Shown in pieces: positions 22,249-48,015 of a DNA stretch of 64,000 bases. The translations under genes were made by a program, and so were the position numbers. Numbering within the stretch: the stretch's first letter is position 1; each line of letters opens with the position of its first letter. The stretch is from Candidatus Eiseniibacteriota bacterium (GTDB taxonomy: Bacteria; Eisenbacteria; RBG-16-71-46). The stretch spans positions 5,215-69,214 of the forward strand of contig CAVZLN010000006.1 of assembly GCA_963776245.1 (NCBI GenBank), read 5' to 3'. The notes beneath the pieces were generated by a model. It had not been told where the DNA came from and made no database searches. It saw only the letters and a list, made by a program, of their open reading frames with translations.

Positions 22249-22257
22249 CGGCCGGGC

Positions 22258-23865: not shown

Positions 23866-23890
23866 CCACCGGTTCACGGGGCGCCCCGGC

Positions 23891-24979
23891 TCAGTTGCCG
23901 GCCTGGCCGGAGGGGTGGCATCGGTAGCACGCGCTGCTGACGTACTGATAGCCGCCGACTCCACTGTGCCGCGGGGTGGTGTTGGCGCTGGTGTGACATC
24001 CGCCGGTCAGGCAGTTGAAGCTCGCGTAGTCGGTCGGCACGTCGTGGCAGGTGGTGCACGCGATGCCGGCATGGCGCCCGGAGACGATCGGGAAGAACGC
24101 GCCGTGGTCGAACGTCCAGCCGCACCGGCTCACGTCGTGGCAGGTGACGCACCGGGTCGAGAACCCGGCGGCGGCGTGATTCGGAGCCGCGGTGCCGTCG
24201 TAGGCCGCCCGATGGCAGGCGTAGCAGTCGGTGGGCGGTGAAGCCGTCCACGGATCGCCGTGGCATTGCACGCACGTCACCGGCGGCAGGTGCGGGCAGG
24301 TGAGCGGGAAACCGCTCGCCCCATGATCGAACCGGGCCGGCGACCACGTCATCATCGAGTGACAGCGCGTGCAATCGCTGGAGAAGTTCCGGTGATCGGG
24401 CACCGCGCCCGGGGTGTGACACGCGCGGCACGCCGCGGCCGTGCCGACGAATCGCAGGTGCCCCTGCGCCGTCGGCGGATGGCAGGACTCGCACTCGATC
24501 GCGCCGTGAGCACCGACCAGCGGGAAGCGCGTCATCTGGTGCATGCTCACCATCGCGGCGCGGTCGAGGAAGCTGCGCGCGGTGTGGCAGCGCCCGCAGT
24601 CGCCGCCGAATTCGCCGAGGTGCGGGTCCTGATGGCACGCGGCGCACTGCTTGCGCTGCTGCTCCGCGGTGAAGTCGAGCGAGGCGTGGCACGCCACGCA
24701 GCTCACCGAGGAGTGCGCGCCGGTGAGCGGGAACCCCGAGCGTTTGGCGTGGTTGAAGCGCCGGCTGATGCGCGCGGGCTTCCAGCCCTGGTCGCCGTGG
24801 CACTCCGCGCAGTCGCCGGTGAACCGCCCGTGGGGATACGCGGGCTCGCCGGGCGGCGCGGCGGCCGGCCGATCGGCCACCGCGCCGGCCAGTCCCGACG
24901 CCACGAGCATCAGCGCGAGGACCGCCGGCGCTGCGCGGCGCGCCGGCAGCCTCCGCGGGACGCGACCTTCGAGTTCCAC
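23891..24979 (-). CDS. multiheme c-type cytochrome (12 CxxCH motifs plus one CX4CH)
   Basis: CAECH, CVACH, CAACH, CGRCH, CESCH, CRACH, CTRCH, CVQCH, CYACH, CVTCH, CTTCH, CLTGGCH, CYRCH in 362 aa. N-terminal signal peptide. Confidence 0.85.
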   Translation of the reverse strand: MELEGRVPRRLPARRAAPAVLALMLVASGLAGAVADRPAAAPPGEPAYPHGRFTGDCAECHGDQGWKPARISRRFNHAKRSGFPLTGAHSSVSCVACHASLDFTAEQQRKQCAACHQDPHLGEFGGDCGRCHTARSFLDRAAMVSMHQMTRFPLVGAHGAIECESCHPPTAQGHLRFVGTAAACRACHTPGAVPDHRNFSSDCTRCHSMMTWSPARFDHGASGFPLTCPHLPPVTCVQCHGDPWTASPPTDCYACHRAAYDGTAAPNHAAAGFSTRCVTCHDVSRCGWTFDHGAFFPIVSGRHAGIACTTCHDVPTDYASFNCLTGGCHTSANTTPRHSGVGGYQYVSSACYRCHPSGQAGN

Positions 24980-25031
24980 GCGTGACCTCCGGGGGGATTC
25001 GGACCCGGTCGGCCCGGGCCCACACCGGACC

Positions 25032-27118
<2,087 letters not shown>

Positions 27119-27363
27119 GGAGACATCCTCCGGGGGTTGGCGATCGCGGGTACCGGTGCGCGGGCATCCTAGCGCGAGTCGGGCGCCGGTGCACCGTCGA
27201 GCGCGCTGCGGCGCGACCCGCGCCGGTCCCGGGACGCGAGGGCCGGGGCATCCGTGCGTCCCGCCGCCGGTGGTGATAGTCTGATTCCGACCCCCCGAAG
27301 CACCGGCGCCGGTCGGTTCCGTCACGCCGGCCCGGCTCGCGCAGTACCCTTCGAACCCCGTGC

Positions 27364-28149
27364 GTGTCGAGCGTGGGGTTCTTCCGTTCTGGAGCCATGA
27401 TGCCCCGAAGGCTCGTCGACTGGGACACCGGCGAGATGCTCACCTCCGAGGAGGAGCTGATGATCGACGAACTCGAAGCCATGCTGCGGCCGCCCGTGCT
27501 GCACATGGCCCCGTATCCCCCCAAGGCGATCACCCTCGCGAGCGGCGAGGTGATGGTGGTCCGCCAGGCCTCGGTCGACGAGGTCGACACGATGCTCAAG
27601 GTCATCCAGCCGCTCTCGTGGCTGAACCGCGACTACTACGACATCGTCTCGGCGCGCCTGTTCTCCGAGCTGCTGGGCTGGAAGACCTATCGCGTGCGCA
27701 ACGAGTACTGCCTGGTCGGCGTCATCGACGGGGTGCTCGCCGGCATCGTCAACGGCCGGATGTTCGACGAGAAGCACGGGATCAGCTACCACACGCTCAC
27801 GCTCAAGCGCGGGCTGCGGGTGGGCTCCCACCTGTTCGCGTCCAAGATGGAGCACCACATCGAGTACCTCGGCCAGGACGAGGTCTGGATCGTGGCCGAG
27901 AGCCCGATCGGGCACCGCCGGTGGATGATCGAGTACCCGCTGGACAAGAAGTTCGAGATCCAGCACGAGCTGGGCGGCGCGCCCTCGTGGGTGCTCAAGA
28001 AGGACGTCTACTACCGGGCCAAGGAGCGTCTGGTGACCGGCACGCGTCCGGTGTCCGCGGAACTGCTGGCGAAGTCCTACCCGATCCGCGAGCCGGACCT
28101 GCGCGTGATGCTCACCCAGATCGAGGACACGCTGGAGGCCCGCGTATGA
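27364..28149 (+). CDS. hypothetical protein, possibly GNAT-fold acyltransferase
   Basis: 261-aa [25 protein letters not shown] resembles a GNAT motif-A (R/QxxGxG/A). No other recognisable motif. Its stop overlaps the thiolase start (ATGA). Confidence 0.35.
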
Positions 28150-29328
28150 GGCCGGTCGCGATCGTGGGTGTGGGCTCGACCCAGTTCGGCCGGGCACAGT
28201 GGAGCCTGCTCAAGATGATGTGCGAGGCGTCGCACGACGCGCTCGTGGACGGCGGGGTCGGCGATCGCAAGGTGGACGCGGTCTACGTCGCCAACATGGG
28301 CGCCCCTCGCAACAACAAGATGGCCGGGCTCGCCAGCGCGCTGGTGGACCGGATGAACCTGTATCCCGCCGGCGCGGAGACCATCGAGAACGGGCCCGCC
28401 TCGGGCGCGTCGGCGCTCAAGCACGGCGTGCACGCCATCGCGTCGGGCCATTGCGACCTCGTGCTGGTGTGCGGCGGCGAGCGCATGCAGGAGGTGAACA
28501 ACTTCGAGGCCACCGAGTTCGTCTCGTACCTCTCGCACCGCTACGCCGAGTACGTGTACGGCGTCACCCTGCCGTCGCTGGCGGGGATGTTCGCGCGCCT
28601 CTACATGGACCGCTACGGTGTCACGCCCGAGCACCTGGCGATGGTGGCGATCAAGAACCACGCGAACGGCGCGCTGAACAAGAAGGCCCACTTGCGCATC
28701 CCGATCACGATGGAGGGCATCCTCACGGGGCCCGACGCGTGGAACAACAACCCGTGGATCGCCGACCCGCTGCGCTTCTTCGATTGCTGCCCGGTGAGCG
28801 ACGGCGCCTCGGCGGTGCTGCTCGCGCCGGCCGAGAAGGCGAAGGACTTCCACAAGAAGCCGGTGCTGGTGGCCGGAATCGGTCAGGCGACCGACACCCA
28901 CGCGGTGCACGAGCGCGAGGATCCGACCGAGCTGACGGCGGTGCGCCTCGCGGCGCAGAAAGCGTTCGCGATGGCCGGCCGGCGCCGACGGACATCCAGG
29001 TCGCCGAGCTGCACGACGCCTTCACCATCCTCGAGATCGCGGAGAGCGAAGAGGCCGGGTTCTTCGCCCGGGGCGAGGGGCACAAGGCGCTCGAGCGCGG
29101 CGAGACCAAGATCGGCGGCCGCCTCCCGATCAACCCCTCGGGCGGCCTCAAGTCGAGCGGCCATCCGGTCGGCAACACCGGCGTTTCCCAGATCGTCGAG
29201 CTGGTCCTCCAGTTGCGCGGGGAGGCGGGCGATAGCAGGTCCCGAACCAGCCCCAGCACGGGTTCGCGGTCAACTTCGGTGGCTTCGGCAACAACGTGCT
29301 CGCCACCGTGCTCAAGCGGGGGGTGTGA
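28146..29328 (+). CDS. SCP-x/nsLTP-type thiolase (DUF35-partnered), with 2 apparent frameshifts (about 28975 and 29230)
   Basis: [16 protein letters not shown]...[32 protein letters not shown] (ORF 27360 frame); [21 protein letters not shown]...[36 protein letters not shown] (ORF 28199 frame); [21 protein letters not shown] (third frame, stop at 29326-29328). Confidence 0.75.
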
Positions 29329-29329
29329 C

Positions 29330-29668
29330 ATGCCACGCGACGTCGAAGCCGCGAAGTGCAGGAAGTGCGGCACGCTCTCCTACCCGACCCACTTCTACTG
29401 CCGCTCGTGCAAGGGCACGAAGTTCGAGCCGGTGCCGGTCACGGGGGAAGGCAAGCTCCTCACCTGGACCAAGGTGTACGCGCTGCCGCTGGACTACGAG
29501 GATCTCTACATCACCCTCGGCATCGTCGAGCTCGACATGGGGGTGCGCGCCACCGGCCGGCTCGAGATGGCCGAGCCCCGCATCGGCGCGCGGGTGCGCG
29601 CCCGGGTCGGCAAGGTGCGCGAGACGGCCGGGAAGGACATCACGGGGCTGATCTTCAGCGCGGTATGA
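29330..29668 (+). CDS. DUF35 Zn-ribbon/OB-fold protein (thiolase partner subunit)
   Basis: [20 protein letters not shown] (Zn ribbon) followed by an OB-fold-like segment [39 protein letters not shown]. Confidence 0.7.
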
Positions 29669-29774
29669 ACGCATGCGGTCCGCCTCGCCGCGACCGTCGT
29701 CGCGGCGAGGCCGGGCGGCTCTGGAGCGGCGCGCACCACGCCGGCACGGGCGCGCGGCGGCGCGCTCGCGGAGG

Positions 29775-30641
29775 ATGGACATGAGCGGATTTCGTTACGA
29801 ACGGCCGGAGAGCATCGCCGCGGCGACCGCGCTCCTCGCCGCGTCTCCCGGACGCGCCTGCGTGCTGGCCGGCGGGACCGACCTGATGGTGGCGCTGCGC
29901 GCGGGCTCGGTGTGCCCCGACGTGGTCGTGGACATCAAGCGCATCCCGGGCCTCTCGGATCTCACCTGGGGCGCCGACGGAAGTCTCGCGATCGGCGCGT
30001 GCGTGATCGTGCAACGCGTCGCGGACGACCCGCGGCTGCGCGCCACGTTCCCGGCGCTCGCGGAGGGCGCCGCGGAGATCGGCTCGCTCCAGATCCGCTC
30101 CCGCGCCACCATCGCCGGGAACCTGGTGAACGCCTCGCCGTGCATGGACACCGCGCCCGGCCTGCTGGTCCACGACGCACGGCTGCGCATCGAGGGCCCG
30201 CGCGGCCGGCGCGAGGCGCCGCTGTCCGACTTCTTCGTCGGGGTGCGCCGGAACGCGCTCCTGCCGGGCGAGATGGTGACCGCAGTGGTGGTTCCCGCGC
30301 CCGCGAAGGACGTGCGCAGCGGCTTCGACAAGATCAAGCGCGTCTCGGGTCACGACCTCGCGCTGGTGAACGCGGCCGCCGCGTGGAGCCCCGCGGAGGC
30401 CACCCTGCGGGTCGCGATCGGATCGTGCGCGATCACCCCCGCGCTGGTGCCGGTGCTCGCCGGCGTGGGACCGGAAACCGATCCCGACGACGCGGGACGC
30501 CGGCTCGGCGCCCTGGCGCTCCAGCACATCCAGCCCATCGACGACGTGCGCGCTTCGGCCGAGTACCGGCGCGACATGACGCTCGCGCTGTGCATGAGGC
30601 TCGCCCGGCGCCTGCTCGGCGGGCCGCGGAGATCGTCATGA
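29775..30641 (+). CDS. FAD-binding (medium) subunit of a xanthine-dehydrogenase/CO-dehydrogenase-family molybdoenzyme
   Basis: VLAGGTDLMVALRAG...IKRIPGL...GACV...ATIAGNLVNASPCMDTAPGLL...DVRASAEYRRDM (CoxM/XdhB-like). No Cys-rich 4Fe-4S insertion, so not an HcrB-type subunit. Confidence 0.8.
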   Translation: MDMSGFRYERPESIAAATALLAASPGRACVLAGGTDLMVALRAGSVCPDVVVDIKRIPGLSDLTWGADGSLAIGACVIVQRVADDPRLRATFPALAEGAAEIGSLQIRSRATIAGNLVNASPCMDTAPGLLVHDARLRIEGPRGRREAPLSDFFVGVRRNALLPGEMVTAVVVPAPAKDVRSGFDKIKRVSGHDLALVNAAAAWSPAEATLRVAIGSCAITPALVPVLAGVGPETDPDDAGRRLGALALQHIQPIDDVRASAEYRRDMTLALCMRLARRLLGGPRRSS

Positions 30642-33499
30642 AGACCTATCCGATCACCCTCACGATCAACGGCGAGAAGACGGCGCTCGAGGTGCCCGCC
30701 GGGCGCACGCTGCTCGAACTCCTCAAGGGCGAGCTGCACCAGCCGAGCGTGAAGGGCGGCTGCGGCATCGGCGAGTGCGGCCTCTGCACGGTGATCCTCG
30801 ACGGCCTGCCGGTCAACGCCTGCCTGGTGATGGCGGCCGAGGTCGATGGTGCCGTGATCGAGACCGCCGAGGGCGCGATGCAGGAGCTGGGCGTGATGTC
30901 CGACCTGCAGCGGGCGTTCGTGGACTTCGGCGCGGTGCAGTGCGGCTTCTGCACTCCGGGCATGCTCAATTCCGCGCGCGCCCTCCTGCAGCGGACCCCG
31001 CGACCGACGCGCGAGCAGATCGTCGAGGCGCTGGCCGGGAACTACTGCCGGTGCACCGGCTACGAGCCGCTGGTGGACGCGGTCGAAGCGGTGGCGCGCG
31101 GCGGGTACACCGCGGCGGCCCCGCTGGCGTCGCCGTACGTCGGCGGCGCCGCGAATCGCGTGGACGCGGCGGCCAAGGTGACCGGCTCCGCGACCTTCGT
31201 GCACGACATGGTCCTGCCGGGGATGCTGCACGCGCGCATCCTGACCTCGCCGCACGCGTCGGCGCGCATCCGCGCGATCGACACCTCGAAGGCGCGCCGG
31301 ATGCCGGGCGTGCGCGCGGTGCTGACCGGGGCCGACCTGCCGTACAAGGTCGGACTCTACATGGAGGACAAGGACATCCTCGCGCGCGGCGTCGTGCGCC
31401 ACCAGGGCGAAGCGGTGGCCGCGGTGGCCGCGGACACCGTGGCGCAGGCGAGCGCGGCGTGCGCGGCGATCGAGGTGGACTACGAAGGGCTCGAGCCGCT
31501 CACCGACGTCCACCAGGCCCTCGCCGAGGGCGCGCGTCAGGTGCACCCCGGGATCGCGGACTACTCGTGGATGAAGGGCGTGTTCTTCCCGGAGCCCGGC
31601 AAGAACGTCGCCCACCATCAGAAGATCCGCAAGGGGGACATCGAGAAGGGCATGGCCGCGGCCGACCGCGTGTTCGAGTTCCACTTCGAGAATCCCCCCG
31701 CGCCCCACGTGCCGATGGAGACCCACACCGCGATCGCCACCGCGCGCGGCGATGGCGAGGTGGAGATCATCACTTCCGCCCAGTCCCCGTTCGCGGTGCG
31801 TCATCTGTTCTGCCACGCGTTCGCGATGCCGCTGCACAAGGTGCGGGTGAAGGTCCCGTACGTGGGCGGCGGCTTCGGCGGCAAGGCGGGGATCCATCTG
31901 GAGCCGCTGGTGTACTGCCTGTCGAAGGCCGCGCGCGGGCGCCCGGTCAAGATCGTGGCTTCGCGCGAGGAGGAGTTCAACACCCTCCCCTCCCGCCAGG
32001 GGCTCTCGAGCGTCATCAAGACCGGCGTGACGAAGGATGGCCGGCTGGTGGCGCTCGACGTCACCTACCTGTGGGACGCCGGCGCCTACGCGGACTACGG
32101 CGTCAACATCGGCCGCGCCGCCGCCTACGCGGGGGCCGGTCCGTACGTGGTGCCGCATTGCCGGGTGGACTCGCTGGTGGTGTACACCAACAAGGTGTTC
32201 GGCACCGCGTACCGCGGCTTCGGCCATCTCGAGGTGCTGTGGGGGATCGAGCGCAACATGGACCTGGTGGCGCACGCGCTCGGCATGGACCCGGTGGAGT
32301 TCCGCCGCAGGAACCTGCTGCGCGTCGGCGAGACCACCATCACCGGCGAGCTGTTCACCGAGGGCCACGGGCGCCCCGAGGAGTGCCTGCGGCTGGTGTC
32401 CGAGGGAATCGGCTGGGATCCCGCGCAGCGGGCGGCGCGCCCGGTCAAGCCCGGCAGCGGGAAGGTGCGCGCAAAGGGCATCGCGATGCTCCACAAGGCG
32501 CCCGCCATGCCCACCTTCACCTCGAGCTCGGCCACCATCCTGTTCAACGGCGACGGTTCCGCGAACGTGCTGGTCTCGGGCGTGGATTACGGGCAGGGCA
32601 CGTACACGACGTTCGCGCAGATCGCGGCGGACGAGCTGAGGATCCCGCTCGAGAAGGTGCGCGTGCCGTGGGACAGCGATACCGACTACACGCCGTACGA
32701 CTGGCAGACGGTGGCGAGCCGTCTCACGGTGATGGGCGGCAACGCCATCATCATGGCGGCGAAGGAATGCATGGACCAGATCCGCGCCACCGCCGGCGCC
32801 GCGCTGCACGCGGCGCCCGAGATGATCGAGTGCGGGAACGGCAGGGCGTGGGTCCGGGGCCGGCCCGGCACGGCGCTGGACTACAGCCAGCTCGTGCTCG
32901 GGTACGTGTTCCCCGACGGCTCGAGCATCGGGGGCCCGGTGATCGGCAAGGGCCGCTACATCGCGACCGGGCTCACCAATCTCGATCCCCAGACCGGACA
33001 GGGCCTGCCCGCGCTCAACTGGACCTACGGCGCGCACGCGGTGGACGTCGAGGTCGACACCGACACCGGTCACATCCGCGTGCTCAAGGTGGTCTCGGCG
33101 TTCGACGTCGGCCGGGTGCTCAACGCCCAGCAGGCGAAGGCGCAGGTGGTGGGCGGCGTGGTGCAGGGAGTGGGCTCGGCGGTGATCGAGAAACTGGTGT
33201 TCGAGGACGGGCGCATGCTGAACAACTCGTTCGTCGATCTCAAGATCCCGACCGCCAAGGACGTCCCCACCGAGATGGTGCAGCTGTTCGTCGAGACGCC
33301 ACACCCGCAGGGCCCCTATGGCGCGCGCGGGCTGGCCGAGCACCCGATGATCTCGATCCCGAGCGCGATCGGGAACGCGGTCGCCAACGCGACCGGCGTC
33401 GAGTTCTTCGAGCTGCCCCTCGATCCCGAGCGCGTCTATCTCACACTCAAGCGGGCGGCCGCTGCGCCGAAGCCGGCGCTCAGCGCCACGCACCGGTAG
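30638..33499 (+). CDS. molybdoenzyme with the [2Fe-2S] small subunit fused N-terminally to the molybdopterin-binding large subunit (xanthine dehydrogenase/aldehyde oxidoreductase family)
   Basis: N-terminus KGGCGIGECGLCTV...QCGFCTPGM...NYCRCTGY (two 2Fe-2S motifs) continues without a stop into AKVTGSATFVHDM...VGGGFGGK...the large-subunit MoCo domain. ATGA overlap with the FAD subunit stop. Confidence 0.8.
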   Translation: MKTYPITLTINGEKTALEVPAGRTLLELLKGELHQPSVKGGCGIGECGLCTVILDGLPVNACLVMAAEVDGAVIETAEGAMQELGVMSDLQRAFVDFGAVQCGFCTPGMLNSARALLQRTPRPTREQIVEALAGNYCRCTGYEPLVDAVEAVARGGYTAAAPLASPYVGGAANRVDAAAKVTGSATFVHDMVLPGMLHARILTSPHASARIRAIDTSKARRMPGVRAVLTGADLPYKVGLYMEDKDILARGVVRHQGEAVAAVAADTVAQASAACAAIEVDYEGLEPLTDVHQALAEGARQVHPGIADYSWMKGVFFPEPGKNVAHHQKIRKGDIEKGMAAADRVFEFHFENPPAPHVPMETHTAIATARGDGEVEIITSAQSPFAVRHLFCHAFAMPLHKVRVKVPYVGGGFGGKAGIHLEPLVYCLSKAARGRPVKIVASREEEFNTLPSRQGLSSVIKTGVTKDGRLVALDVTYLWDAGAYADYGVNIGRAAAYAGAGPYVVPHCRVDSLVVYTNKVFGTAYRGFGHLEVLWGIERNMDLVAHALGMDPVEFRRRNLLRVGETTITGELFTEGHGRPEECLRLVSEGIGWDPAQRAARPVKPGSGKVRAKGIAMLHKAPAMPTFTSSSATILFNGDGSANVLVSGVDYGQGTYTTFAQIAADELRIPLEKVRVPWDSDTDYTPYDWQTVASRLTVMGGNAIIMAAKECMDQIRATAGAALHAAPEMIECGNGRAWVRGRPGTALDYSQLVLGYVFPDGSSIGGPVIGKGRYIATGLTNLDPQTGQGLPALNWTYGAHAVDVEVDTDTGHIRVLKVVSAFDVGRVLNAQQAKAQVVGGVVQGVGSAVIEKLVFEDGRMLNNSFVDLKIPTAKDVPTEMVQLFVETPHPQGPYGARGLAEHPMISIPSAIGNAVANATGVEFFELPLDPERVYLTLKRAAAAPKPALSATHR

Positions 33500-33515
33500 G
33501 CAGGGCGAGGAGCAC

Positions 33516-35072
33516 GTGATCGACGCCTTCGTGCTGGTGCGCCGCGACGCGTACCAGGATTCGGTGCTCCTCATGCGGCTCTCCGAGGCGCTGCGCGGAC
33601 TGCCGGGCGTCGAGGACGCGGTGGTAGCGATGGGCACGCCTCACAACCGCGAACTGCTCGAGACCCAGGGCTACGGCGGCGCTGCGCTCACGGGCGCCTC
33701 CCCCAACGACCTCGTGATCGCGGTGAAGGGCGGCCCCGACGCGCCCCCCGCCGTGGAGGCCGAGCTCGAGCGCCTGCTGCGGGCCGGCTCGGGTGGCGGC
33801 GCCGAGGAGAGAGCGCGCGTGTCCTCGGTGGCCGCAGCGGTCCGCCAGCACCCCGAGGCGAATCTGGTGCTCATCTCGGTGCCGGGCGAGCACGCGGCGC
33901 GCGAGGCGCGGCGCGCGCTGGCGCTCGGCCGGCACGTCATGCTGTTCTCGGACAACGTGGCGCTGGCGGACGAAGTCGCGCTCAAGCGCGACGCCGTGGC
34001 GCGCGGGCTCCTGATGATGGGGCCCGACTGCGGCACCGCGATCGTCAACGGGATGCCGCTGGGGTTCGCCAACGCGGTGCGCCGCGGTCCGGTCGGGATC
34101 GTGGGCGCGGCCGGCACCGGCATCCAGGAGGTCTCCAGCTGCATCCACCGCCTCGGGAGCGGGGTGTCCCAGGCGATCGGCACCGGCGGCCGCGACCTGA
34201 CCCAGGCGGTGGAAGGGCTCATGACGCGCCTCGGCATCGCGGCGCTGGCGGACGATCCCGCGACGCGCGTGATCGTGGTGATCTCCAAGCCTCCCGCCCC
34301 CGCCGTGGCCGAGCGGGTCATCGCCGCGCTCGCAGCCACCCCCAAGCCCTGCGTGGTGCATTTCGTCGGCGACGCGCCGCGCCCCGACGACGCCTCGCAC
34401 GGGATCGCCTTCGCCGACTCGCTCGCCGGCGCGGCCGAGGCCGCCTGCCGGCTCGCGGGAGTGCCGGTGCCCCCTCCCTCCGCTCCCGCGCCCGAGGCCG
34501 CCCGGGCCGCGGCGCTGGCGGCGCGCCTCGCGCCCCGCGCGCGGCTGCGCGCGCTGTTCTGCGGCGGCACCACCGGGCAGGAGGCGCTGGCGATGCTCGG
34601 CCGCGCCGGGCTCGAGGTGCGCTCGAACCTGCACAAGGGGGGCGCGCTGCGTATCGACGGCAGTGAGCTGGGGGCACCCGCCGATGGCGGCTCGGGGCAC
34701 GTGCTGCTCGACCTCGGGGACGACCTGTTCACCCGCGGCCGGCCCCATCCCATGATCGAGCCCGCGCTCCGCAACGAGCGCCTCGCGCTCGAGGTCGCGG
34801 ATCCCGCGGTGGGCCTGCTGCTCTTCGATTGCGTGATCGGCTACGGATCGCACGCCGACCCGGCGGGGGTGCTCGCCGCCGGCGTGCGCGAGGCGCGCGC
34901 GCGCGCCGCCCCGCGGGCGCTGGTCGCCATCGCGTCGGTCACCGGCACGGCCGACGATCCGCAGGACTTCCAGGCCCAGGTCCGGGCACTGGAGGCGGCG
35001 GACGTGGTCGTCGCCCCCGACAACCGCGCCGCCGCGGCGCTCGCCGCCGCGGTGCTCCGGAGGATCGGGTGA
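33516..35072 (+). CDS. FdrA-family protein (succinyl-CoA-synthetase-alpha-like CoA-binding/ligase fold)
   Basis: 518 aa. LVLISVPGEHAAREARRALALGRHVMLFSDNV...GPDCGTAIVNGMPLGFANAVRRGPVGIVGAAGTGIQEV resembles the ligase-CoA domain. Followed by DUF1116 and DUF2877 genes as in fdrA-ylbE-ylbF triads. Confidence 0.7.
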   Translation: MIDAFVLVRRDAYQDSVLLMRLSEALRGLPGVEDAVVAMGTPHNRELLETQGYGGAALTGASPNDLVIAVKGGPDAPPAVEAELERLLRAGSGGGAEERARVSSVAAAVRQHPEANLVLISVPGEHAAREARRALALGRHVMLFSDNVALADEVALKRDAVARGLLMMGPDCGTAIVNGMPLGFANAVRRGPVGIVGAAGTGIQEVSSCIHRLGSGVSQAIGTGGRDLTQAVEGLMTRLGIAALADDPATRVIVVISKPPAPAVAERVIAALAATPKPCVVHFVGDAPRPDDASHGIAFADSLAGAAEAACRLAGVPVPPPSAPAPEAARAAALAARLAPRARLRALFCGGTTGQEALAMLGRAGLEVRSNLHKGGALRIDGSELGAPADGGSGHVLLDLGDDLFTRGRPHPMIEPALRNERLALEVADPAVGLLLFDCVIGYGSHADPAGVLAAGVREARARAAPRALVAIASVTGTADDPQDFQAQVRALEAADVVVAPDNRAAAALAAAVLRRIG

Positions 35073-36514
35073 TGGACACGCGCAAGGTGCTCGATCTGTT
35101 CGGCGCCGAGCTGGCGGTGGTGAACGCGGGGCTCGGCTCGTTCGCGCACGACCTGCGCCGCGCCGGGGGCACCGCCATCGAGGTGGACTGGCGTCCGCCC
35201 GCCGGCGGGGATCCCGCGGTGTGCGAGGCGCTCGACCGCTGCTTCGGTCCCGACGGCGGGGTGCGCGCCGACGTGGCAGCCGCCACCCGCGAGTCGGTGG
35301 ACCGTCTGCTGCGGGCGAAACCGGTGATCGCGGGGATCGGCCGCGCCCTCGACGTCATCCCGGGAATGCGCCAGGAGCTGGTCCTCCACTCCGGTCCGCC
35401 GGTCGAGTGGTCGCGCATGAGCGGACCGACGCGCGGCGCCGTGATGGGCGGACTGGTGTACGAGGGGCTCGCCGCCGACCCCGACGAGGCCGCCGCGCTC
35501 GCCGCGTCCGGGCGCATCGCGTTCGCGCCCTGCCACCATCACCAGACCGTGGGCCCGATGGCGGGGATCGTCACCGCGTCGATGCCGGTGTGGATCCTCG
35601 AGAACGAGGCGTTCGGCAATCGCGCCTTCAGCACCCTCAACGAAGGCCTCGGCAAGGTGCTGCGCTACGGGGCCTACGACGCCGAGGTGATCGAGCGCCT
35701 GCGCTGGATGGAACGCGTGCTCGCGCCGCTGCTGGCCCGGACGTTCGAACGCATGGGCCGCTTCGACCTGCGGTCGCTGATCGCGCAGGCCCTGCAGATG
35801 GGCGACGAGGTCCACAATCGCAACCGCGCCGCCACCTCGCTGCTGATCCGCGCGCTCGCGCCGCACCTGGTGGCGCTCGAAGCCCCTTCCGGCGATGTCG
35901 CGGCGGCGCTCCGGTTCCTCGATTCGAACGACCACTTCTTCCTCAACCTGTCGATGGCGGCGTGCAAGAGCGCGCTCGATCCCGCCGCCGGCATCGCCGG
36001 CTCGAGCATGATCACGGTGATGGCGCGCAACGGGACCGACTTCGGCGTGCAGGTGTCGGCGCTGCCGGGCCGCTGGTTCACCGCCCCGGCCCCGATGGTG
36101 GACGGGCTCTACCTGCCCGGGTTCACCGCCGCCGACGCGGCTCCCGACATCGGCGACTCGGTCATCACCGAGACCGCCGGCCTCGGCGGCATGGCGATGG
36201 CCGCGGCGCCCGCGATCGTGCAGTTCGTGGGCGGCACCGCCGCCCAGGCGCTGGGGACCACCCGGCGCATGTACGAGATCACCCTCGCCGAACATCCGGC
36301 CTACCGGATCCCGGCGCTCGACTTCCGCGGCACCGCGACCGGCATCGACCTGCTCAAGGTGGTCGAGACCGGCGTGGTCCCGGTGGTCAACACCGGCATC
36401 GCCCACAAGACGCCCGGCGTCGGAATGGTCGGCGCCGGGCTGGTGAAGCCCCCATTCGAGTGTTTCCGCGACGCGCTGCTCGCGTTCACCGACGCCCTCG
36501 GGGCCGGCGCGTAG
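35072..36514 (+). CDS. DUF1116 (YlbE-like) protein
   Basis: About 480 aa. Start overlaps the FdrA stop. Occupies the conserved gene-neighbour position next to FdrA. No catalytic motif recognised by eye. Confidence 0.6.
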   Translation: MDTRKVLDLFGAELAVVNAGLGSFAHDLRRAGGTAIEVDWRPPAGGDPAVCEALDRCFGPDGGVRADVAAATRESVDRLLRAKPVIAGIGRALDVIPGMRQELVLHSGPPVEWSRMSGPTRGAVMGGLVYEGLAADPDEAAALAASGRIAFAPCHHHQTVGPMAGIVTASMPVWILENEAFGNRAFSTLNEGLGKVLRYGAYDAEVIERLRWMERVLAPLLARTFERMGRFDLRSLIAQALQMGDEVHNRNRAATSLLIRALAPHLVALEAPSGDVAAALRFLDSNDHFFLNLSMAACKSALDPAAGIAGSSMITVMARNGTDFGVQVSALPGRWFTAPAPMVDGLYLPGFTAADAAPDIGDSVITETAGLGGMAMAAAPAIVQFVGGTAAQALGTTRRMYEITLAEHPAYRIPALDFRGTATGIDLLKVVETGVVPVVNTGIAHKTPGVGMVGAGLVKPPFECFRDALLAFTDALGAGA

Positions 36515-36551
36515 CGCGCGACGCTACCCGCGGCCCCTTCCCGGAGGACCC

Positions 36552-37418
36552 ATGAAGCCCATCGAACTCTCGATCCCGATCGGCATCGGCACGCCGGCGT
36601 GGCCCACCTACGAGCCGCTGCAGATCAAGTACTTCAAGCGCCTCGCCCCCAACGGCGCCAACGGCCAGATCATCACCCACTCCAACCACGTCGGCACCCA
36701 CCTCGACGGCGAGATCCATTTCTACACCCCGGGCAAGGACATCGCGCAGCTCTCGCTCGACTACCTGGTGGGCGAGGCCGCGATCGTGGACCTGTCCGAC
36801 GCGTGCGGGGACTACGACGTGTACACCTCGAAGATGGTGGAGGAGCGCGTCGAGGTGAAGGACGGCGACATCCTCCTCATCCACACCGGCTATCACCACT
36901 ACGGCTGGGACCAGCCGACCGCGGACGAGATCGCCTACATGGTCAAGCACCCCGGCCCCGACCGCGAGTTCGCGGAGTGGTGCAAGAAGAAGAAGCTGCG
37001 CTGGCTCGGGGTGGACTGCGGCAGCGCCGACCATCCGATGAACACCATCATCCGGGAGTGGATGCCGCGCCAGGCGCGCCAGGCCGATCAGCACTTCCGC
37101 ACCCGCTACGGCAAGCCGCTCGCCGAGTTCTTCGACGACTCGAAGTACCAGCTCATGCACATCGAGATGTTCAACCACGGCATCATCCACGCCGAGTGCC
37201 TGGGCGGCGACATCGACCTGCTGCTGAACCAGCGCTGCACCGTCGGCTGCTTCCCGTGGCGCCTGGTGGACGGCGAGGCGTGCATCTCGCGCATCGTCGC
37301 GTTCGTGGACGACGCCCGTCACGCCGAACTGATGAAGAAGAAGGCGTCGTGCGCCCTGACCCGGCACGGCGACATCGCCGGCGCGTCGTGCCCCGAACTG
37401 CACGGCAAGCAGCGCTGA
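36552..37418 (+). CDS. cyclase-family protein (kynurenine-formamidase-like metal-dependent hydrolase)
   Basis: HSNHVGTHLDGEIHF matches the HxGTHxDxPxH cyclase signature. 288 aa. Confidence 0.75.
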   Translation: MKPIELSIPIGIGTPAWPTYEPLQIKYFKRLAPNGANGQIITHSNHVGTHLDGEIHFYTPGKDIAQLSLDYLVGEAAIVDLSDACGDYDVYTSKMVEERVEVKDGDILLIHTGYHHYGWDQPTADEIAYMVKHPGPDREFAEWCKKKKLRWLGVDCGSADHPMNTIIREWMPRQARQADQHFRTRYGKPLAEFFDDSKYQLMHIEMFNHGIIHAECLGGDIDLLLNQRCTVGCFPWRLVDGEACISRIVAFVDDARHAELMKKKASCALTRHGDIAGASCPELHGKQR

Positions 37419-37432
37419 ACGACCCCACGCCC

Positions 37433-38188
37433 GTGCTGCGGGCGGAGCGCGCCGGCCCGCTGGCGGCCGACGCGCTCCGTGCCGGGGCCGCCGGGCGGGT
37501 GGTGGACGTCTCCTCGCGCGCGGCGTTCGTGCGCCTCGACGACGGTCCGCTGGTCGCGGTGCTCCCCGCCGCGACGCCGCTCCATCCGTGGGCGGTAGTC
37601 GCCGCGGCCGGGGCCCCTCCCGAGGCCGGCGCGGCCGTGCGTCTCTCGGTCGACGGAGCGGCGGTCCCCGGTCTGTGTCTGACCGCACGGCCCGCGACAT
37701 TCCACCCGGGCCTCGTCCGTGCGCTCGCGTCGCTGGTGCGCGCCCCAGCACGCCCGGATGACTTCGACGAGGCGCTGTCCGGCGGGCTCCACCGCTTCCG
37801 CGCGCTCGGCGACGCCCGCGCGCTTGCCGGGCTGGTGGGGCTCGGCCCGGGCCTCACACCTTCGGGGGACGACATCGTGGTGGGCGCGCTCGCGGCGCTC
37901 GACCTCGCGCAGGAGGCACGGCCCGCCGCGGCCGGGCTGCGCGACGCGCTCGCAGCGGCGCTCGACGGGAAGATCGCGTTTCGCACCCCGCGGCTGTCGG
38001 CCCAGCTGCTGTCGGCCGCGCTCGCGGGGTTCTATGCCGAGCCGCTGCTCGCGCTGCTCGAGGCGCTCGCGACTGCCGGATCGCCCGGCGCGCTTGCCGC
38101 GGCGGCGGACGCCCTCACTGCGGTCGGCCATCGAAGCGGGACCGATATGTTGCGCGGGGTCGCGGCGGCGATGGAGTGCGTGGGATGA
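37433..38188 (+). CDS. DUF2877 (YlbF-like) protein; GTG start inferred
   Basis: C-terminal part of ORF 36599-38188 (TPSGDDIVVGALAALD...GHRSGTDMLRGV), in the expected position after FdrA/DUF1116. GTG at 37433 lies immediately after the cyclase stop. Confidence 0.5.
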   Translation: MLRAERAGPLAADALRAGAAGRVVDVSSRAAFVRLDDGPLVAVLPAATPLHPWAVVAAAGAPPEAGAAVRLSVDGAAVPGLCLTARPATFHPGLVRALASLVRAPARPDDFDEALSGGLHRFRALGDARALAGLVGLGPGLTPSGDDIVVGALAALDLAQEARPAAAGLRDALAAALDGKIAFRTPRLSAQLLSAALAGFYAEPLLALLEALATAGSPGALAAAADALTAVGHRSGTDMLRGVAAAMECVG

Positions 38189-38201: not shown

Positions 38202-40049
38202 CTAGCGGATCCACACCACCTTGCCCGACGCGTTCCCCGCGTCGGTGCGCAGGTCCCAGAAGTAGATGCCGCTCGCCAGTGACTCGGGAAAACGCCATCC
38301 CAGCCGGCTCTCGCCCGCGTGCAGCTCGCCCGCGGCGCGATGCACGCGCTCGCCCTCGAGGGACACCACGTCGAGCGAGTACCGCGAAGACCGCGGCAGG
38401 GTGACCGTGAGTTCGGCGCCCTCGGCCCGCACACGGGCGACCGGATTGGGCCACTCCGTGACGTGGAGGCCTGCGGGAGGCGCGCCCGGCCGGCCCACGC
38501 CGAGCTCCTGGGGCACCGGGCTCTCCAGGTGCCGGATGATATTGAGCACGACCTGTCGGACGACCGGGTTGCCCGTGGTGCCGACGTAGTACCAGAGGTC
38601 GTCGCCAAGATGGCGGTAGGGCATCGTGAAGACGGCGCCCTGGCCAGGCTGCTGGTACCCACCCATGACCCCCCAGCACGGAGACACCGGGTGCGAGGTA
38701 CCATACGGGTTGGCCTCGCACGTCGCGGCGATCGCGAACGACCAGGGCGTTCCCCGGGCGTAGGCGTCCGCCATCAGCGTGGGCCTGCCGTCGGCGGTGG
38801 ACGGATCGCCGAACCATGTGAGCTTCGCGCCATCCACCTCGTCGCCCGGCAGGTGGGTGGCGCCGAGCTTCGCGCCCTTCGCCAGACCGGTGTTCGCGAA
38901 CGCCCAGTGCGTCGAGTCGCGCACCGTCCAGTCGGTCGGGGTGCCTTGCCCGTCGCTGTCCAGGGACGCCTGCGTGGCGTCCCCCCAGTCGAGGCCGGTG
39001 AGCGAATACGCCCCGCGGTTGGCCGGCGGGAGTCTCCAGTTGTAGGTGCCGGGGTGCAGCGGATGGGGTCCGGTCGGCCCATAGAGGTACTGCTGCCCGG
39101 GCAGGATGCCGCGCGTGCCGCCATCGGCGTCGCTGATGTTGTCGCCCTTGTAACAGATCAGCTGGCGCATGTCGGTGGAGTACTCGGTCCGCCACCAGCA
39201 GGTGTTGCCGGTGGCGAAGAAGACGTTGCCGCCGCTGGCGATGTACGCCTCGACGGCGTCCCGCTGGGACTCGGACCAGTACTCCGAGTGCCCGGTGAAC
39301 ACCACTTCCTGGTACGCGCTGAGCAGGGCGAGTCCCTGGACGTGGATGTCCTCCATGGTGGCGTAGTCGGCCTCCACGCCGGACAGGGCGAGGAAGCGCA
39401 CCCACGGCAGGTCGAACTGGGCGAACTGGCCACGCCCGTCGTTGGTGTCCGCCGGGCGCTCGAGCGAGGCCATGTTGGTGCGGTCGGCGGACAGCTTGTC
39501 GTAGAGGGAGCGCCCGCCCCAGGCCTGATAGGCGAAGCAGGTCGAGGTGGAGGGAACCACTAGGATGGGGTGGGTCGGCTGCGGGTTGCGGACGAAGAAC
39601 GGCACCTGTTGACGCATGAAGCTGGGCTCACCGTCCTCGGGCCACACCTCGACGTAGTACGCCGCGCTGACCCAATCGGCCGGAACGACGACCCGCAGCG
39701 TCGGCGCCCAGCCGCAGCCGGTCGACGACACCCCGACGTTGACGCCGGCCGCGTCCGTGACCAGTTGATGGCCGGCGGGCGTGTGGGGGTGGTGGGCTCC
39801 GGTGCCGTCGTACACGTAGGTCTCGCTCGCGCCCACCCGCTGGAAGCGGATCCCCACCGTCGGCGACTTCGAGCACACGAAGATCGACAGCGTGTCCCCC
39901 GCCACCACCGAGGGCGGCCAGACATAGGCGTAGATCGACTTGATGGGGGCGCCGGTCCAGGTCGGATCCAGCGGATCGACCATCGCGGCGGTGGCCGGGG
40001 ACGCGGCGGCCAGCGCCAGTCCGAGCGCGCCGTGGAGCCACCACGGCAT
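38202..40049 (-). CDS. secreted protein with FlgD-Ig-like C-terminal sorting domain, function unknown
   Basis: Signal peptide MPWWLHGALGLALAAASPATAA. C-terminus WPNPVARVRAEGAELTVTLPRSSRYSLDVVSLEGERVHRAAGELHAGESRLGWRFPESLASGIYFWDLRTDAGNASGKVVWIR. Confidence 0.55.
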   Translation of the reverse strand: MPWWLHGALGLALAAASPATAAMVDPLDPTWTGAPIKSIYAYVWPPSVVAGDTLSIFVCSKSPTVGIRFQRVGASETYVYDGTGAHHPHTPAGHQLVTDAAGVNVGVSSTGCGWAPTLRVVVPADWVSAAYYVEVWPEDGEPSFMRQQVPFFVRNPQPTHPILVVPSTSTCFAYQAWGGRSLYDKLSADRTNMASLERPADTNDGRGQFAQFDLPWVRFLALSGVEADYATMEDIHVQGLALLSAYQEVVFTGHSEYWSESQRDAVEAYIASGGNVFFATGNTCWWRTEYSTDMRQLICYKGDNISDADGGTRGILPGQQYLYGPTGPHPLHPGTYNWRLPPANRGAYSLTGLDWGDATQASLDSDGQGTPTDWTVRDSTHWAFANTGLAKGAKLGATHLPGDEVDGAKLTWFGDPSTADGRPTLMADAYARGTPWSFAIAATCEANPYGTSHPVSPCWGVMGGYQQPGQGAVFTMPYRHLGDDLWYYVGTTGNPVVRQVVLNIIRHLESPVPQELGVGRPGAPPAGLHVTEWPNPVARVRAEGAELTVTLPRSSRYSLDVVSLEGERVHRAAGELHAGESRLGWRFPESLASGIYFWDLRTDAGNASGKVVWIR

Positions 40050-40330
40050 GAGCACCGATCGCGGTCTCAGATACACACCGGGACACTCCCTGGGGGGGGC
40101 CAGTGGGAACGCGACGGTGCCGGGACGCACGTTCGCCCGGCGGGACGGCTATAAGCGTACGGCGGCCCGGGGGTTTCCGCCAGCGGCGCCATCCGGACCG
40201 GCCGGCGCCACGCGGGGCCGGGCCGGCGGCGGTCCCCCGGCGCGAATCCCCCGTTGACCAACGAACGTTCGTTCGTTAACGTCCGCGGGTCGGGAGCCCC
40301 CCAGCTTCCCTGTCGCCGCGAGGTCCGCGC

Positions 40331-41392
40331 ATGAACGCTCCTGTCGCGTATTTCCTCGACGCGCCCGCCGCACCGCTGGTGCCGCGCGCGCTCGAGCTGG
40401 CCCCGCCCGGGCCCGGCGAGGCCGTCGTCGAGGTCCTCGCCTGCGGCCTGTGCCACACCGACCTCGGGTTCGCCGACGGCTCGGTGCGCCCCAATCACGC
40501 GCTTCCCCTGGTGCTCGGCCACGAGGTCGTGGGCACCGTCACCGCGACCGGGGACGGCGTGACGCTGAAGACCGGCACCCGCGTCATCGTGCCCGCGGTG
40601 CTGCCGTGCGGCACGTGCGCGTTCTGCCGCGCGGGCCGCGGGAACGCCTGCCCCTCGCAGAAGATGCCCGGCAACGACATCCACGGCGGCTTCGCCACCC
40701 ACCTGCTGGTGCCGGCCGCCCCGCTGGTCTCGCTCGACGGTCTGCCCGCGGGCGTGGACGTCCGGATGCTCTCGGTGGTGGCCGACGCGGTCTCGACCGC
40801 GTACCAGGCGGTGCGCCGCGCGGACCTCAAGGCCGGGGATGTCGCGTTCGTCGTCGGCGCGGGCGGCGTGGGCGGATTCGTCACCCAGATCGCGCACGCC
40901 ATGGGCGCACGGGTCGCGGTGTGCGACGTGCAGCCGGCCCGCCTCGCGCAGTTGCTCGCCCACGGCGCCGCGCACACCGCGGACGTCCGTGATCGCACGC
41001 CCCAGGAGGTCCGCAAGGAGCTGCACGCGCTGGCGCGCGGATGGGACGTGCCCTCGCTGCGCTGGCGCGTCTTCGAGTGCAGCGGGAGCCCCGCCGGGCA
41101 GACGCTCGCCTTCGGGCTCCTCTCCCGCGGCGCGACCCTGCTGCAGGTGGGCTACACCATCCAGACGGTGGAGGTGCGCCTCTCCAACCTGATGGCGTTC
41201 GACGCCACCATTCACGGCACCTGGGGCTGTCCGCCGGAGGCGTATGCCGATGTGCTGCGCCTGATCGCCGAGGGCAAGGTGGCGCTCGAGCCGTTCGTCG
41301 AGCACGCGCCGATGTCCTCGATCAACGAACTGCTCGACGCCCTGGCGCATCACCGGCTGGAGCGCCGCATGATCCTCGACCCTCGCCGCTAG
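40331..41392 (+). CDS. had: Zn-dependent medium-chain alcohol dehydrogenase; candidate 6-hydroxycyclohex-1-ene-1-carbonyl-CoA dehydrogenase
   Basis: GLCHTD and GHEVVGTV zinc-ADH signatures, GxGxxG NAD fold (VVGAGGVGGFV). Sits immediately upstream of oah and dch homologues. Confidence 0.65.
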   Translation: MNAPVAYFLDAPAAPLVPRALELAPPGPGEAVVEVLACGLCHTDLGFADGSVRPNHALPLVLGHEVVGTVTATGDGVTLKTGTRVIVPAVLPCGTCAFCRAGRGNACPSQKMPGNDIHGGFATHLLVPAAPLVSLDGLPAGVDVRMLSVVADAVSTAYQAVRRADLKAGDVAFVVGAGGVGGFVTQIAHAMGARVAVCDVQPARLAQLLAHGAAHTADVRDRTPQEVRKELHALARGWDVPSLRWRVFECSGSPAGQTLAFGLLSRGATLLQVGYTIQTVEVRLSNLMAFDATIHGTWGCPPEAYADVLRLIAEGKVALEPFVEHAPMSSINELLDALAHHRLERRMILDPRR

Positions 41393-41402
41393 GGAGCCGC
41401 CG

Positions 41403-42536: not shown

Positions 42537-42546
42537 GGAGGCGACG

Positions 42547-43347
42547 ATGAACCTCCCCCCTGCCCCCTCCTCCCTGTCGCGCGCGGAGCTGATCGAGCAC
42601 GGCACGGTATTGCGCATCGTGATGGACAAGCCCAAGGGCAACGTGCTCTCGCGCGCGATGATGTCCGAGCTCGCGGCCACCCTCGCGGCGCACCGCGACC
42701 TGCCCCACCTGCGGCTGGTGATCCTGCGCGGTGCGGGCGGCCACTTCTCCTTCGGTGCCGCGGTCGAGGAGCACGTGCCCGAACTGGCGGCCGCGATGCT
42801 CGCGGAGTTCCACGCCTTCATCCGCGCGCTCGCGGCCTATCCGGTGCCGGTGGCGGCGCTGGTCGAGGGACGCTGCCTGGGCGGGGCGTTCGAGACCGTG
42901 CTCGCCTGCCATCTGGTGTTCGCCGCGTCGAACGCGCGCTTCGGCTGCCCCGAGATCAAGCTCGGCGTGTTCCCTCCGGTGCTCGCGGCGGCGGGCGCGC
43001 TGCGGCTCGGCGGCGCGCTCGCCGAGCGGCTGCTGGTCACCGGCGACGAGCTCGACGCCGCGGCCGCGGCGCGTGCCGGGCTGGTCGCGCGCGTGCTCGA
43101 GGACGGCACCGACCCCGAGGCCGCGGTGCTCGAGTGGTACCGCGAGCGACTCGCGCCCCTGTCGGCGTTCTCGCTGCGCGCCGCGACCCGCGCCGCGCGG
43201 GAGGGCTCGGGCCTGCTCGCCGCCCTCGGGGCGCCGCTCGACGCCGCGGAGCGGCTCTACCTCGAGCGGCTGGTGCCGAGCTACGACGGCAACGAGGGCG
43301 TCGCCGCGTTCCTGGCGCGTCGCGCGCCGGTCTGGAAGGACGCGTGA
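42547..43347 (+). CDS. dch: enoyl-CoA hydratase; candidate cyclohexa-1,5-diene-1-carbonyl-CoA hydratase
   Basis: 266-aa crotonase (LRGAGGHFSFGAAVEE...EGRCLGGAFETVLACHLVFAASNARFGCPEIKLGVFP). Confidence 0.6.
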   Translation: MNLPPAPSSLSRAELIEHGTVLRIVMDKPKGNVLSRAMMSELAATLAAHRDLPHLRLVILRGAGGHFSFGAAVEEHVPELAAAMLAEFHAFIRALAAYPVPVAALVEGRCLGGAFETVLACHLVFAASNARFGCPEIKLGVFPPVLAAAGALRLGGALAERLLVTGDELDAAAAARAGLVARVLEDGTDPEAAVLEWYRERLAPLSAFSLRAATRAAREGSGLLAALGAPLDAAERLYLERLVPSYDGNEGVAAFLARRAPVWKDA

Positions 43348-44051: not shown

Positions 44052-44062
44052 GGACGATCCCC

Positions 44063-48011: not shown

Positions 48012-48015
48012 CCCG

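Follow-up and report, generated by a model that had tools for sequence, protein, structure and literature searches.

A widespread nine-gene cluster around an AllFGH-type transcarbamoylase, classed as catabolic for nucleobases or ureides

Anaerobic degradation of allantoin in Escherichia coli involves AllFGH, an oxamate carbamoyltransferase that corresponds to the FdrA/DUF1116/DUF2877 triad and interconverts oxalurate plus inorganic phosphate with oxamate plus carbamoyl phosphate (Kim & Kim 2024, PMC11326118). Homologues of all three subunits are encoded within a cassette of nine genes in the 64,000-nt stretch of contig CAVZLN010000006.1, from a Candidatus Eiseniibacteriota bacterium, that was analyzed here; this whole stretch is termed the window and all positions are those within it. 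The other six genes encode a cyclase-family metal-dependent hydrolase, the two subunits of a molybdenum hydroxylase of the xanthine dehydrogenase (XDH) family, and a trio that consists of a protein here called g1, a thiolase-fold protein and a DUF35 protein. Identification of AllFGH dates from 2024 and is so far confined to the allantoin pathway of enterobacteria; the cassette shows a distinct and far more widespread branch of its family that is tied to the cyclase, the molybdenum hydroxylase and the trio. It is classed here among catabolic clusters for nucleobases or ureides that center on an AllFGH-type transcarbamoylase. A preliminary description of this DNA, made from its letters alone, did not recognize the combination as a described pathway, and none was found in full-text literature searches, which gave papers on AllFGH and no description of this gene combination (the xanthinase cluster of Tong et al. 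2023 was outside the comparison). Every one of the gene families is known and the chemistry of AllFGH was described in 2024; what was not found described is the nine-gene combination, the obligatory pairing of allG with the cyclase gene, the thiolase without its cysteine and the unannotated GNAT-fold family.

Gene content and conservation of the cassette

The nine genes, all on the + strand, extend from 27397 to 38188 as judged by third-position GC frame analysis and translation, with families assigned via Pfam to all but the first. The G+C content of the window is about 71%, and because of this its open reading frame (ORF) lists are full of spurious frames. Of the eight junctions seven are tight, with start and stop codons that overlap or have 1-37 nt between them, and the eighth is a gap of 106 nt (29669-29774) before the gene for the flavin (FAD) subunit of the hydroxylase. 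All nine of the co-directional, mostly coupled genes given in the preliminary description were found, and its family assignments proved correct in Pfam or fold searches. With Rfam at gathering thresholds, neither the window nor any of seven representative loci had a cluster-associated riboswitch.

Genomic contexts were obtained from an exact-protein look-up and a scan of 185,579 species genomes, and tblastn with the nine proteins of the window, together with all-against-all ORF clustering, was used to score the 87 loci fetched; gene counts are for the 37 non-redundant loci with full 10-kb flanks. Both allF and allG are in all 37, the cyclase gene in 36, XDH genes in 27, the trio in 25 and all nine genes in 17. 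The nine genes are a conserved unit, which answers the question of co-occurrence that the preliminary description had left to a gene-neighborhood search. The cassette is in bacteria of about 12 annotated lineages, with its gene order shuffled, and the labels of the metagenome-assembled genomes (MAGs) that carry it include Eisenbacteria, Sumerlaeota, Phycisphaerales, Acidobacteriota, Spirochaetota, Thermotogae, Bacteroidota, Bacillota and Chloroflexota. A cultured carrier, Anaerocolumna aminovalerica DSM 1283 (Bacillota), makes the function directly testable; its cluster occupies about 50.5-64.7 kb of NZ_FOWD01000002.1, on the complement strand.

The closest relatives of the window cassette are from Candidatus Eisenbacteria MAGs, and the order of its genes is repeated in MAGs of Candidatus Eisenbacteria, Sumerlaeota and Phycisphaerales and in an RBG Acidobacteria MAG (locus L025). 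With cyc, thl, duf35 and fad standing for the genes of the cyclase, the thiolase-fold protein, the DUF35 protein and the FAD subunit, and FeS and moco for separate genes of the remaining hydroxylase parts, the order in Sphaerochaeta and in another Acidobacteriota MAG (L036) is allF-allG-cyc-g1-thl-duf35-(GntR)-allH-fad-FeS-moco-permease. That in Bacillota, including A. aminovalerica DSM 1283, is (MobA-like)-g1-thl-duf35-allH-allF-allG-cyc-fad-FeS-moco-permease. Ten Bacillota loci (L058 12393-12977 and homologues) have between the cyclase and FAD genes a conserved protein of about 190 aa with no Pfam match, which may be a further member of the cassette there. Among the conserved ORF clusters, c30 is of about 190 aa with no Pfam match; c29 and c33, also with no Pfam match, were rejected as genes since they overlap annotated genes on the opposite strand and so look like shadow ORFs.

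The AllF/FdrA-like subunit (33516-35072, +), which is succinyl-CoA-synthetase-alpha-like with CoA_binding (PF02629) and Ligase_CoA (PF00549) domains, is 40% identical to FdrA of E. coli K-12, exceeds the cut-off of the NCBIfam FdrA subfamily (477 versus 433 bits) and has its structural counterpart in PDB 3dmy. The AllG/DUF1116-like subunit (35072-36514, +; PF06545; PDB 3clq) is 46% identical to E. coli YlbE. The AllH/DUF2877-like subunit (about 37415-38188, +; PF11392), whose start is uncertain with a candidate GTG at 37433, shares 36% identity with E. coli YlbF in the 120 aa at the C-terminus. At least 8000 proteins match AllG at E <= 1e-10, and among the matches listed its closest 120 relatives are 66-100% identical. 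What in E. coli FdrA is the C-terminal tail (positions 508-552 of NCBIfam PRK06091) is matched in the window by the first 55 or so residues of AllG (35072-35270), and so the boundary between the AllF and AllG subunits is shifted; in Sphaerochaeta the two are fused in a protein of 1050 aa (L031 8246-11398). A Bacteroidota MAG (L075) has an unannotated 256-aa ORF (9240-10010) between its allF and allG. The preliminary description was right to give the triad as a proposed carbamoyl-transferring enzyme, the triad being AllFGH, the oxamate carbamoyltransferase (PMC11326118).

Between allG and allH, as the preliminary description had it, is the gene for the 288-aa cyclase-family hydrolase (36552-37418, +; PF04199 at 113 bits versus a cut-off of 23). 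It is the best conserved of the cassette proteins, at 50-90% identity, and has the HxGTHxDxxxH metal motif in 51 of 51 homologues. In every ordered locus examined its gene is directly after allG, small insertions apart, one being the gene for an IS200-like transposase in the Bacteroidota locus L075 (11542-11976). Members of PF04199 hydrolytically open cyclic amides or cyclic 1,3-diones (PMC10470551; PMC6117287), and the family includes isatin hydrolase, which opens a ring, and dihydrophloroglucinol cyclohydrolase, which cleaves a C-C bond (PMC10470551). The arylformamidase (kynurenine formamidase) equivalog TIGR03035 is missed by the cassette cyclase, at 48 bits versus a cut-off of 223.

The molybdenum hydroxylase and the thiolase-fold trio

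The FAD-binding subunit (29775-30641, +; FAD_binding_5 PF00941 and CO_deh_flav_C PF03450) and a fused subunit of 953 aa for two [2Fe-2S] clusters and the molybdenum cofactor (MoCo) (30638-33499, +; Fer2, Fer2_2, the Ald_Xan_dh_C hammerhead, MoCoBD_1 and MoCoBD_2) provide the full XDH-family set of FAD_binding_5/CO_deh_flav_C, two [2Fe-2S], a/b hammerhead and two MoCo-binding domains. In most other lineages the iron-sulfur (FeS) and MoCo parts are encoded by two separate genes. The catalytic glutamate (bovine Glu1261) is kept in 38 of 39 homologues of the MoCo subunit, GLAEHP aligning with GVGELP of the Desulfovibrio gigas aldehyde oxidoreductase MOP, and so the XDH-family molybdoenzyme of the preliminary description, with FAD and fused FeS/MoCo subunits, is there with all its domains. 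The residue equivalent to Glu802 is alanine (GGGFG[GS]KA) in 35 of the 39, the window sequence being GGGFGGKA; the bovine motif GGGFGGKE is taken to mark the xanthine-binding position. The FAD-gene frame is open upstream to an ATG at 29673, inside the 106-nt gap, and a 40-aa ORF (4593-4715) is called in the matching gap of a relative (L001).

None of the NCBIfam equivalog cut-offs of the XdhA, selenium-dependent XDH, PucD, 4-hydroxybenzoyl-CoA reductase, PaoC or carbon monoxide dehydrogenase models is approached by the enzyme. With XdhA_XDHase at 517 versus a cut-off of 780, and alanine at the Glu802 position, it is by this test not a bona fide xanthine dehydrogenase. The 4-hydroxybenzoyl-CoA reductase models are likewise below cut-off (alpha 452 versus 995, beta 141 versus about 404-405 and gamma 133 versus 258 bits). 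Whereas the FAD subunit of that reductase carries an extra [4Fe-4S] loop, its beta model matches the cassette FAD subunit in two separate stretches only, which fits a predicted lack of the loop. XdhA, aldehyde oxidoreductase, 4-hydroxybenzoyl-CoA reductase and PucD are all at about the same distance from the MoCo subunit; for the MoCo-only region the best match to a solved structure is the alpha subunit of 4-hydroxybenzoyl-CoA reductase.

The first gene of the cassette (27397-28149, +, with 27364, 27397 and 27460 as possible starts) encodes g1, a conserved protein of 230-250 aa with 2639 matching proteins. Profile searches, phmmer and hmmsearch, including one with a g1-family profile against PDB sequences, gave no Pfam, NCBIfam or PDB match. 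The fold of its AlphaFold model (pLDDT 83.5) is that of GNAT, the acyl-CoA N-acyltransferases, and g1 is GNAT-like at the level of predicted fold. Of its earlier designation as GNAT-like the fold is borne out by the model, yet no sequence profile detects GNAT, and the canonical Q/RxxGxG/A motif is absent, the loop being RGLRVG with arginine in place of the first glycine of the motif.

The thiolase-fold protein (28146-29328, +; Thiolase_N PF00108 and Thiolase_C_1 PF22691) has as its nearest solved structures the archaeal acetoacetyl-CoA thiolases 7yvy (E = 1e-78) and 6esq. Where these have EAACASG it has ENGPASG, so that the nucleophilic cysteine is replaced by proline, and the proline is present in 32 of 32 cassette homologues (GPASG, not ACASG); the GHP and NFGGFGN motifs are retained. 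Since the substitution is in all homologues an acyl-enzyme intermediate would be impossible, and on these motifs the protein is judged not to be a classical working thiolase. Ketosynthase-fold proteins that have the His and Asn but are without the acyl-accepting Cys favor decarboxylation or enolate chemistry. DUF35 proteins are the usual partners of SCP-x or archaeal-type thiolase-fold proteins, and in the relatives the DUF35 gene invariably adjoins the thiolase-like gene. The window copy (29330-29668, +; Zn-ribbon zf-ChsH2 PF12172 and OB fold OB_ChsH2_C PF01796) has the CxxC...CxxC. The families and the pairing in the earlier designation of an SCP-x-type thiolase with a DUF35 partner therefore stand, but not the nucleophile. 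Its further reading as a side-chain thiolase like BbsAB is weakened, because the catalytic cysteine is replaced by proline throughout, and the NCBIfam equivalog cut-offs of BbsB and BbsA are missed by far (150 versus 750 and 37 versus 250 bits).

In this assembly the thiolase-like gene spans three successive frames, with switches near 28975 and 29233, and alignment with three relatives (L001, L009 and L012) shows two 1-nt deletions; in relatives the gene is unbroken and encodes 394-410 aa. Just upstream of the cassette, on the - strand at about 24900-27325, is a gene for an S9 prolyl-oligopeptidase with a PD40/DPPIV N-terminal propeller, which can be read only by changing frame four times or more within 1.2 kb. 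This suggests that indel errors are frequent in the assembly, and because of it the disruptions of the thiolase-like gene are put down to such errors, probably, and not to decay. Two independent breaks within a single 1.2-kb gene, the second of them in one possible alignment also having TAC changed to TAG with respect to relatives, could instead mean that this organism has a true pseudogene here, as part of a cassette in decay. With the other eight cassette genes unbroken, the state of the S9 peptidase gene pointing to a high indel error rate, and contigs of the closest relatives giving the impression, by their names and lengths (about 1-2 Mb), of long-read MAG assemblies, we regard decay as improbable.

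Candidate pathways and the surrounding genes

Outside the Eisenbacteria group the cluster usually has a gene for an NCS2 permease (20 of the 37 full-flank loci and 25 loci in all), which scores 268-356 bits with the uracil permease model and 124-231 with that for the xanthine permease PbuX, RutG also being above PbuX. Regulators of the PucR or GntR type and a MobA-like domain, possibly a molybdenum-cofactor nucleotidylyl-transferase, are within clusters of other lineages. With this context, the suggestion in the preliminary description of anaerobic hydroxylation and ring opening of an N-heterocycle fits the permease and PucR genes elsewhere, but its benzoyl-CoA link is not supported. The cassette is likely to be self-contained and to serve the anaerobic catabolism of a nucleobase-like heterocycle independently of benzoyl-CoA.

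A specific version of this, in which pyrimidines are oxidized anaerobically with uracil or thymine giving barbiturate, is advanced tentatively, as the likeliest of the readings considered though one that falls short of being probable; it is the simplest scheme that uses every part, with all of its steps inferred. Barbiturate is the product of uracil/thymine dehydrogenase (EC 1.17.99.4), a molybdo-iron-sulfur flavoprotein, and in the aerobic oxidative pathway it is followed by ureidomalonate. The FAD/FeS/MoCo enzyme of the cassette would introduce a hydroxyl group at C6 of uracil or thymine, giving barbiturate or 5-methylbarbiturate, and the cyclase-fold metallohydrolase would open the ring to ureidomalonate (N-carbamoyl-malonamate). 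As ureidomalonate is the one-carbon-longer homologue of oxalurate, the substrate of E. coli AllFGH, the AllF/AllG/AllH-like enzyme, with which the cyclase may work and to which it is perhaps bound, could move the carbamoyl group to phosphate, yielding carbamoyl phosphate and malonamate; a carbamate kinase encoded elsewhere could then yield ATP from the carbamoyl phosphate. No barbiturase or amidase-type ureidomalonase family was found by Pfam among the nine cassette proteins, an amidase being in the loci of certain other lineages only. Barbiturase has the AtzD/TrzD fold, and as there is no Pfam match beyond the families given above no cassette protein looks like it.

For the last step there appear to be two alternatives. 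In the first, the GNAT-fold, Cys-less thiolase-fold and DUF35 proteins would convert the malonyl amide to an acyl-CoA, the pull probably coming from decarboxylation to acetyl-CoA or propionyl-CoA. Clusters of the Anaerolineaceae type, which have a PucR regulator, lack the trio; instead they encode, downstream of the cyclase gene, an amidase-signature enzyme together with a CoA-transferase of family III, and these two, the second as a dicarboxylate-type enzyme, would carry out the step there. The CoA-transferase is in seven of the 37 loci and never together with the trio, and therefore both modules are taken to do the same job. In NCBIfam it is nearest to the CoA:oxalate (350-397 bits) and succinate-glutarate CoA-transferases.

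The oxalate-type affinity of this second module is among the points that favor a route by way of oxalurate, in which the AllFGH-like enzyme keeps its E. coli specificity, the cyclase opens a cyclic ureide with a five-membered ring, for instance parabanate or a hydroxy-hydantoin, made by the molybdoenzyme, and oxamate is deamidated and activated to oxalyl-CoA. The presence of PucR regulators, and identities to the E. coli enzyme as high as those of AllF and AllG, also speak for it. Against it, tblastn with E. coli AllC, AllD and AllE found no allantoin genes in any locus, no nucleobase is known to give parabanate by a single molybdenum hydroxylation, and the permease looks to be of the uracil type, not of the xanthine or urate type. 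Furthermore oxalyl units have no alpha-carbon, so that the thiolase-fold partner would be without an obvious role, and there is no oxalyl-CoA decarboxylase among the conserved neighbors. A thiolase fold with its His and Asn but no Cys fits a malonyl unit and not an oxalyl unit, and the oxalurate route is considered unlikely.

Several points nevertheless weigh against pyrimidines as the substrate and against the scheme as drawn. The AllFGH-like enzyme could retain oxalurate as its substrate, which would also fit an oxalate-type CoA-transferase, and we know of no precedent for a GNAT that takes an amide to a thioester. PucR regulators are classically tied to purines. The permease is below the NCBIfam equivalog cut-off (356 versus 477), and there is none in the window. 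In seven Christensenellaceae-type loci and that of a spirochaete (L042), XDH genes are missing from the 10 kb around the cluster although the trio, AllF/AllG and the cyclase are all encoded. Carbamate kinase, sought by tblastn with E. coli YbcF, is in only one locus (again L042) and not in the window. Neither carbamate kinase nor the allantoin genes were accepted as conserved neighbors, given one locus for the former and none for the latter.

Some of the same features leave room for another N-heterocycle, whether a purine (xanthine, hypoxanthine or an 8-oxopurine), a pterin or lumazine, or a pyridine carboxylate, with the same enzyme logic and other intermediates: the XDH-family enzyme is about equidistant from several characterized clades, PucR regulators are present, and the NCS2 family also carries purines, with all permease scores below equivalog cut-offs. 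However, the Glu802 that binds xanthine is replaced by alanine, and SsnA, YgfK, HyuA, YgeW and YgeX of the anaerobic purine routes (PMC12507026) are not among the cassette proteins or the frequent neighbor clusters scanned. The thiolase-fold and CoA-transferase modules imply as end product an acid of two to four carbons activated with CoA, and purine routes to glycine or diaminopropionate need no such acid. A heterocycle of this kind is also rather unlikely in our estimation.

To return to pyrimidines, the route in its entirety would be an undescribed, ATP-yielding and anaerobic one by way of barbiturate, with the cyclase acting together with the AllFGH-type enzyme and the trio giving acetyl-CoA or propionyl-CoA directly, and in this full form it is somewhat doubtful. 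If it is true, it would be a new oxygen-independent degradation of nucleobases that matters for how carbon and nitrogen are cycled in guts, sediments and digesters, and would give a function to a large family of 'hypothetical' proteins, that of g1. It would also provide a clear case of a thiolase fold without its nucleophile yet under strong selection. Production of acetyl-CoA or propionyl-CoA by the trio would be new enzyme chemistry for all three folds.

A last alternative involves the genes downstream. A class I (ATP-dependent, Bcr/Bzd-type) benzoyl-CoA reductase locus is at 40331-51250 on the + strand, in the order had, oah, dch, two HGD-D subunits, two BadF/BadG/BcrA/BcrD ATPases and an HMGL-like protein, and the preliminary description had the cassette feeding it, an aromatic or N-heteroaromatic acid being hydroxylated and then opened or trimmed, with a BbsAB-like side-chain thiolase, to give benzoyl-CoA for the adjacent reductase. 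In its favor, had, oah, dch and bcr lie beside the cassette both here and in the closest relative (L001 = L008), the MoCo-only region matches 4-hydroxybenzoyl-CoA reductase alpha best among solved structures, and one lineage has TetR and aldehyde:ferredoxin oxidoreductase genes upstream. Among the 87 loci, though, homologues of had, oah, dch or bcr are within 10 kb of the cassette on that one contig of one close relative only, where a kinase gene intervenes. In the window a 642-aa protein whose C-terminal domain is like that of the N,N-dimethylformamidase beta-subunit (DMFA2_C) is encoded between the cassette and had, at 38202-40130 on the - strand. This gene is convergent with the cassette and 13 nt from its end, and because of it the cassette is not co-transcribed with had. 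The adjacency is lineage-specific and the two gene sets are separate transcription units, so that feeding of the benzoyl-CoA pathway by the cassette is not supported. The clusters of other carriers hold permeases and regulators of nucleobase type, most carriers (Sphaerochaeta, Christensenellaceae, Anaerolineaceae, Thermotogae) are presumably fermentative going by MAG labels, and the BbsA, BbsB and 4-hydroxybenzoyl-CoA reductase scores are far under their cut-offs in addition to the loss of the thiolase nucleophile. Synteny largely refutes the benzoyl-CoA route, to which we give very little chance.

The DMFA2_C-like gene was itself considered as a tenth cassette member and rejected, having no homologue in any related locus. 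A class I benzoyl-CoA reductase locus is notable for an Eisenbacteria-like MAG, and beyond it, on the - strand at 51395-52783, is a gene for a classical thiolase. Further from the cassette are genes for a TonB-dependent receptor, a TPR protein and a multihaem cytochrome c with c7/c3-type domains (16688-24979), upstream, and for a homologue of peptidase M2, which is angiotensin-converting-enzyme-like (61234-63120, - strand); such homologues are to our knowledge uncommon in bacteria.

Comparison with described systems

E. coli AllFGH, like the cassette, has three homologous subunits encoded together, and by analogy the chemistry is likely to be the same, phosphorolytic removal of carbamoyl from an N-acylurea to give carbamoyl phosphate and an amide. 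In contrast to the E. coli locus the cassette has a cyclase gene after allG, is without allB, allC, allD or allE or an adjacent carbamate kinase gene, and couples the triad to a molybdenum hydroxylase and CoA-linked enzymes; the C-terminal tail of E. coli FdrA, of about 50 aa, is at the N-terminus of AllG. Kynurenine formamidase, isatin hydrolase and dihydrophloroglucinol cyclohydrolase have the HxGTHxDxxxH metal site in common with the cassette cyclase, which, at 288 aa, has about 80 extra C-terminal residues compared with the approximately 210 aa of known PF04199 members and differs from them in being genetically tied to allG.

The XDH-family cofactor set and the catalytic glutamate are shared with E. 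coli XdhD-YgfM and XdhABC, the aldehyde oxidoreductase of D. gigas and 4-hydroxybenzoyl-CoA reductase, and the fused FeS-MoCo polypeptide resembles XdhD and MOP of D. gigas. The cassette enzyme differs in being below every equivalog cut-off, in having alanine at the Glu802 position and in having no selenium-linked or uricolytic neighbors (SsnA, YgfK). The archaeal complex of acetoacetyl-CoA thiolase, HMG-CoA synthase and DUF35, as well as PhlACB, BbsAB and Ltp2-ChsH2(DUF35), resemble the cassette in that a thiolase fold, a DUF35 protein and a third catalytic partner are encoded alongside one another. The cassette differs in that proline replaces the nucleophilic cysteine of the thiolase fold, and in that the third partner is a GNAT-fold protein and not one that is HMGCS- or KAS III-like.

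The aerobic oxidative pyrimidine pathway of Rhodococcus and Corynebacterium has the same intermediates as those proposed here, barbiturate and ureidomalonate, and a first enzyme with molybdenum, FAD and FeS. It uses barbiturase and ureidomalonase, whereas ring opening in the cassette scheme would be by a cyclase-fold enzyme. Cleavage of the ureide would be by transcarbamoylation instead of hydrolysis to urea, and the end product would be an acyl-CoA in place of free malonate.

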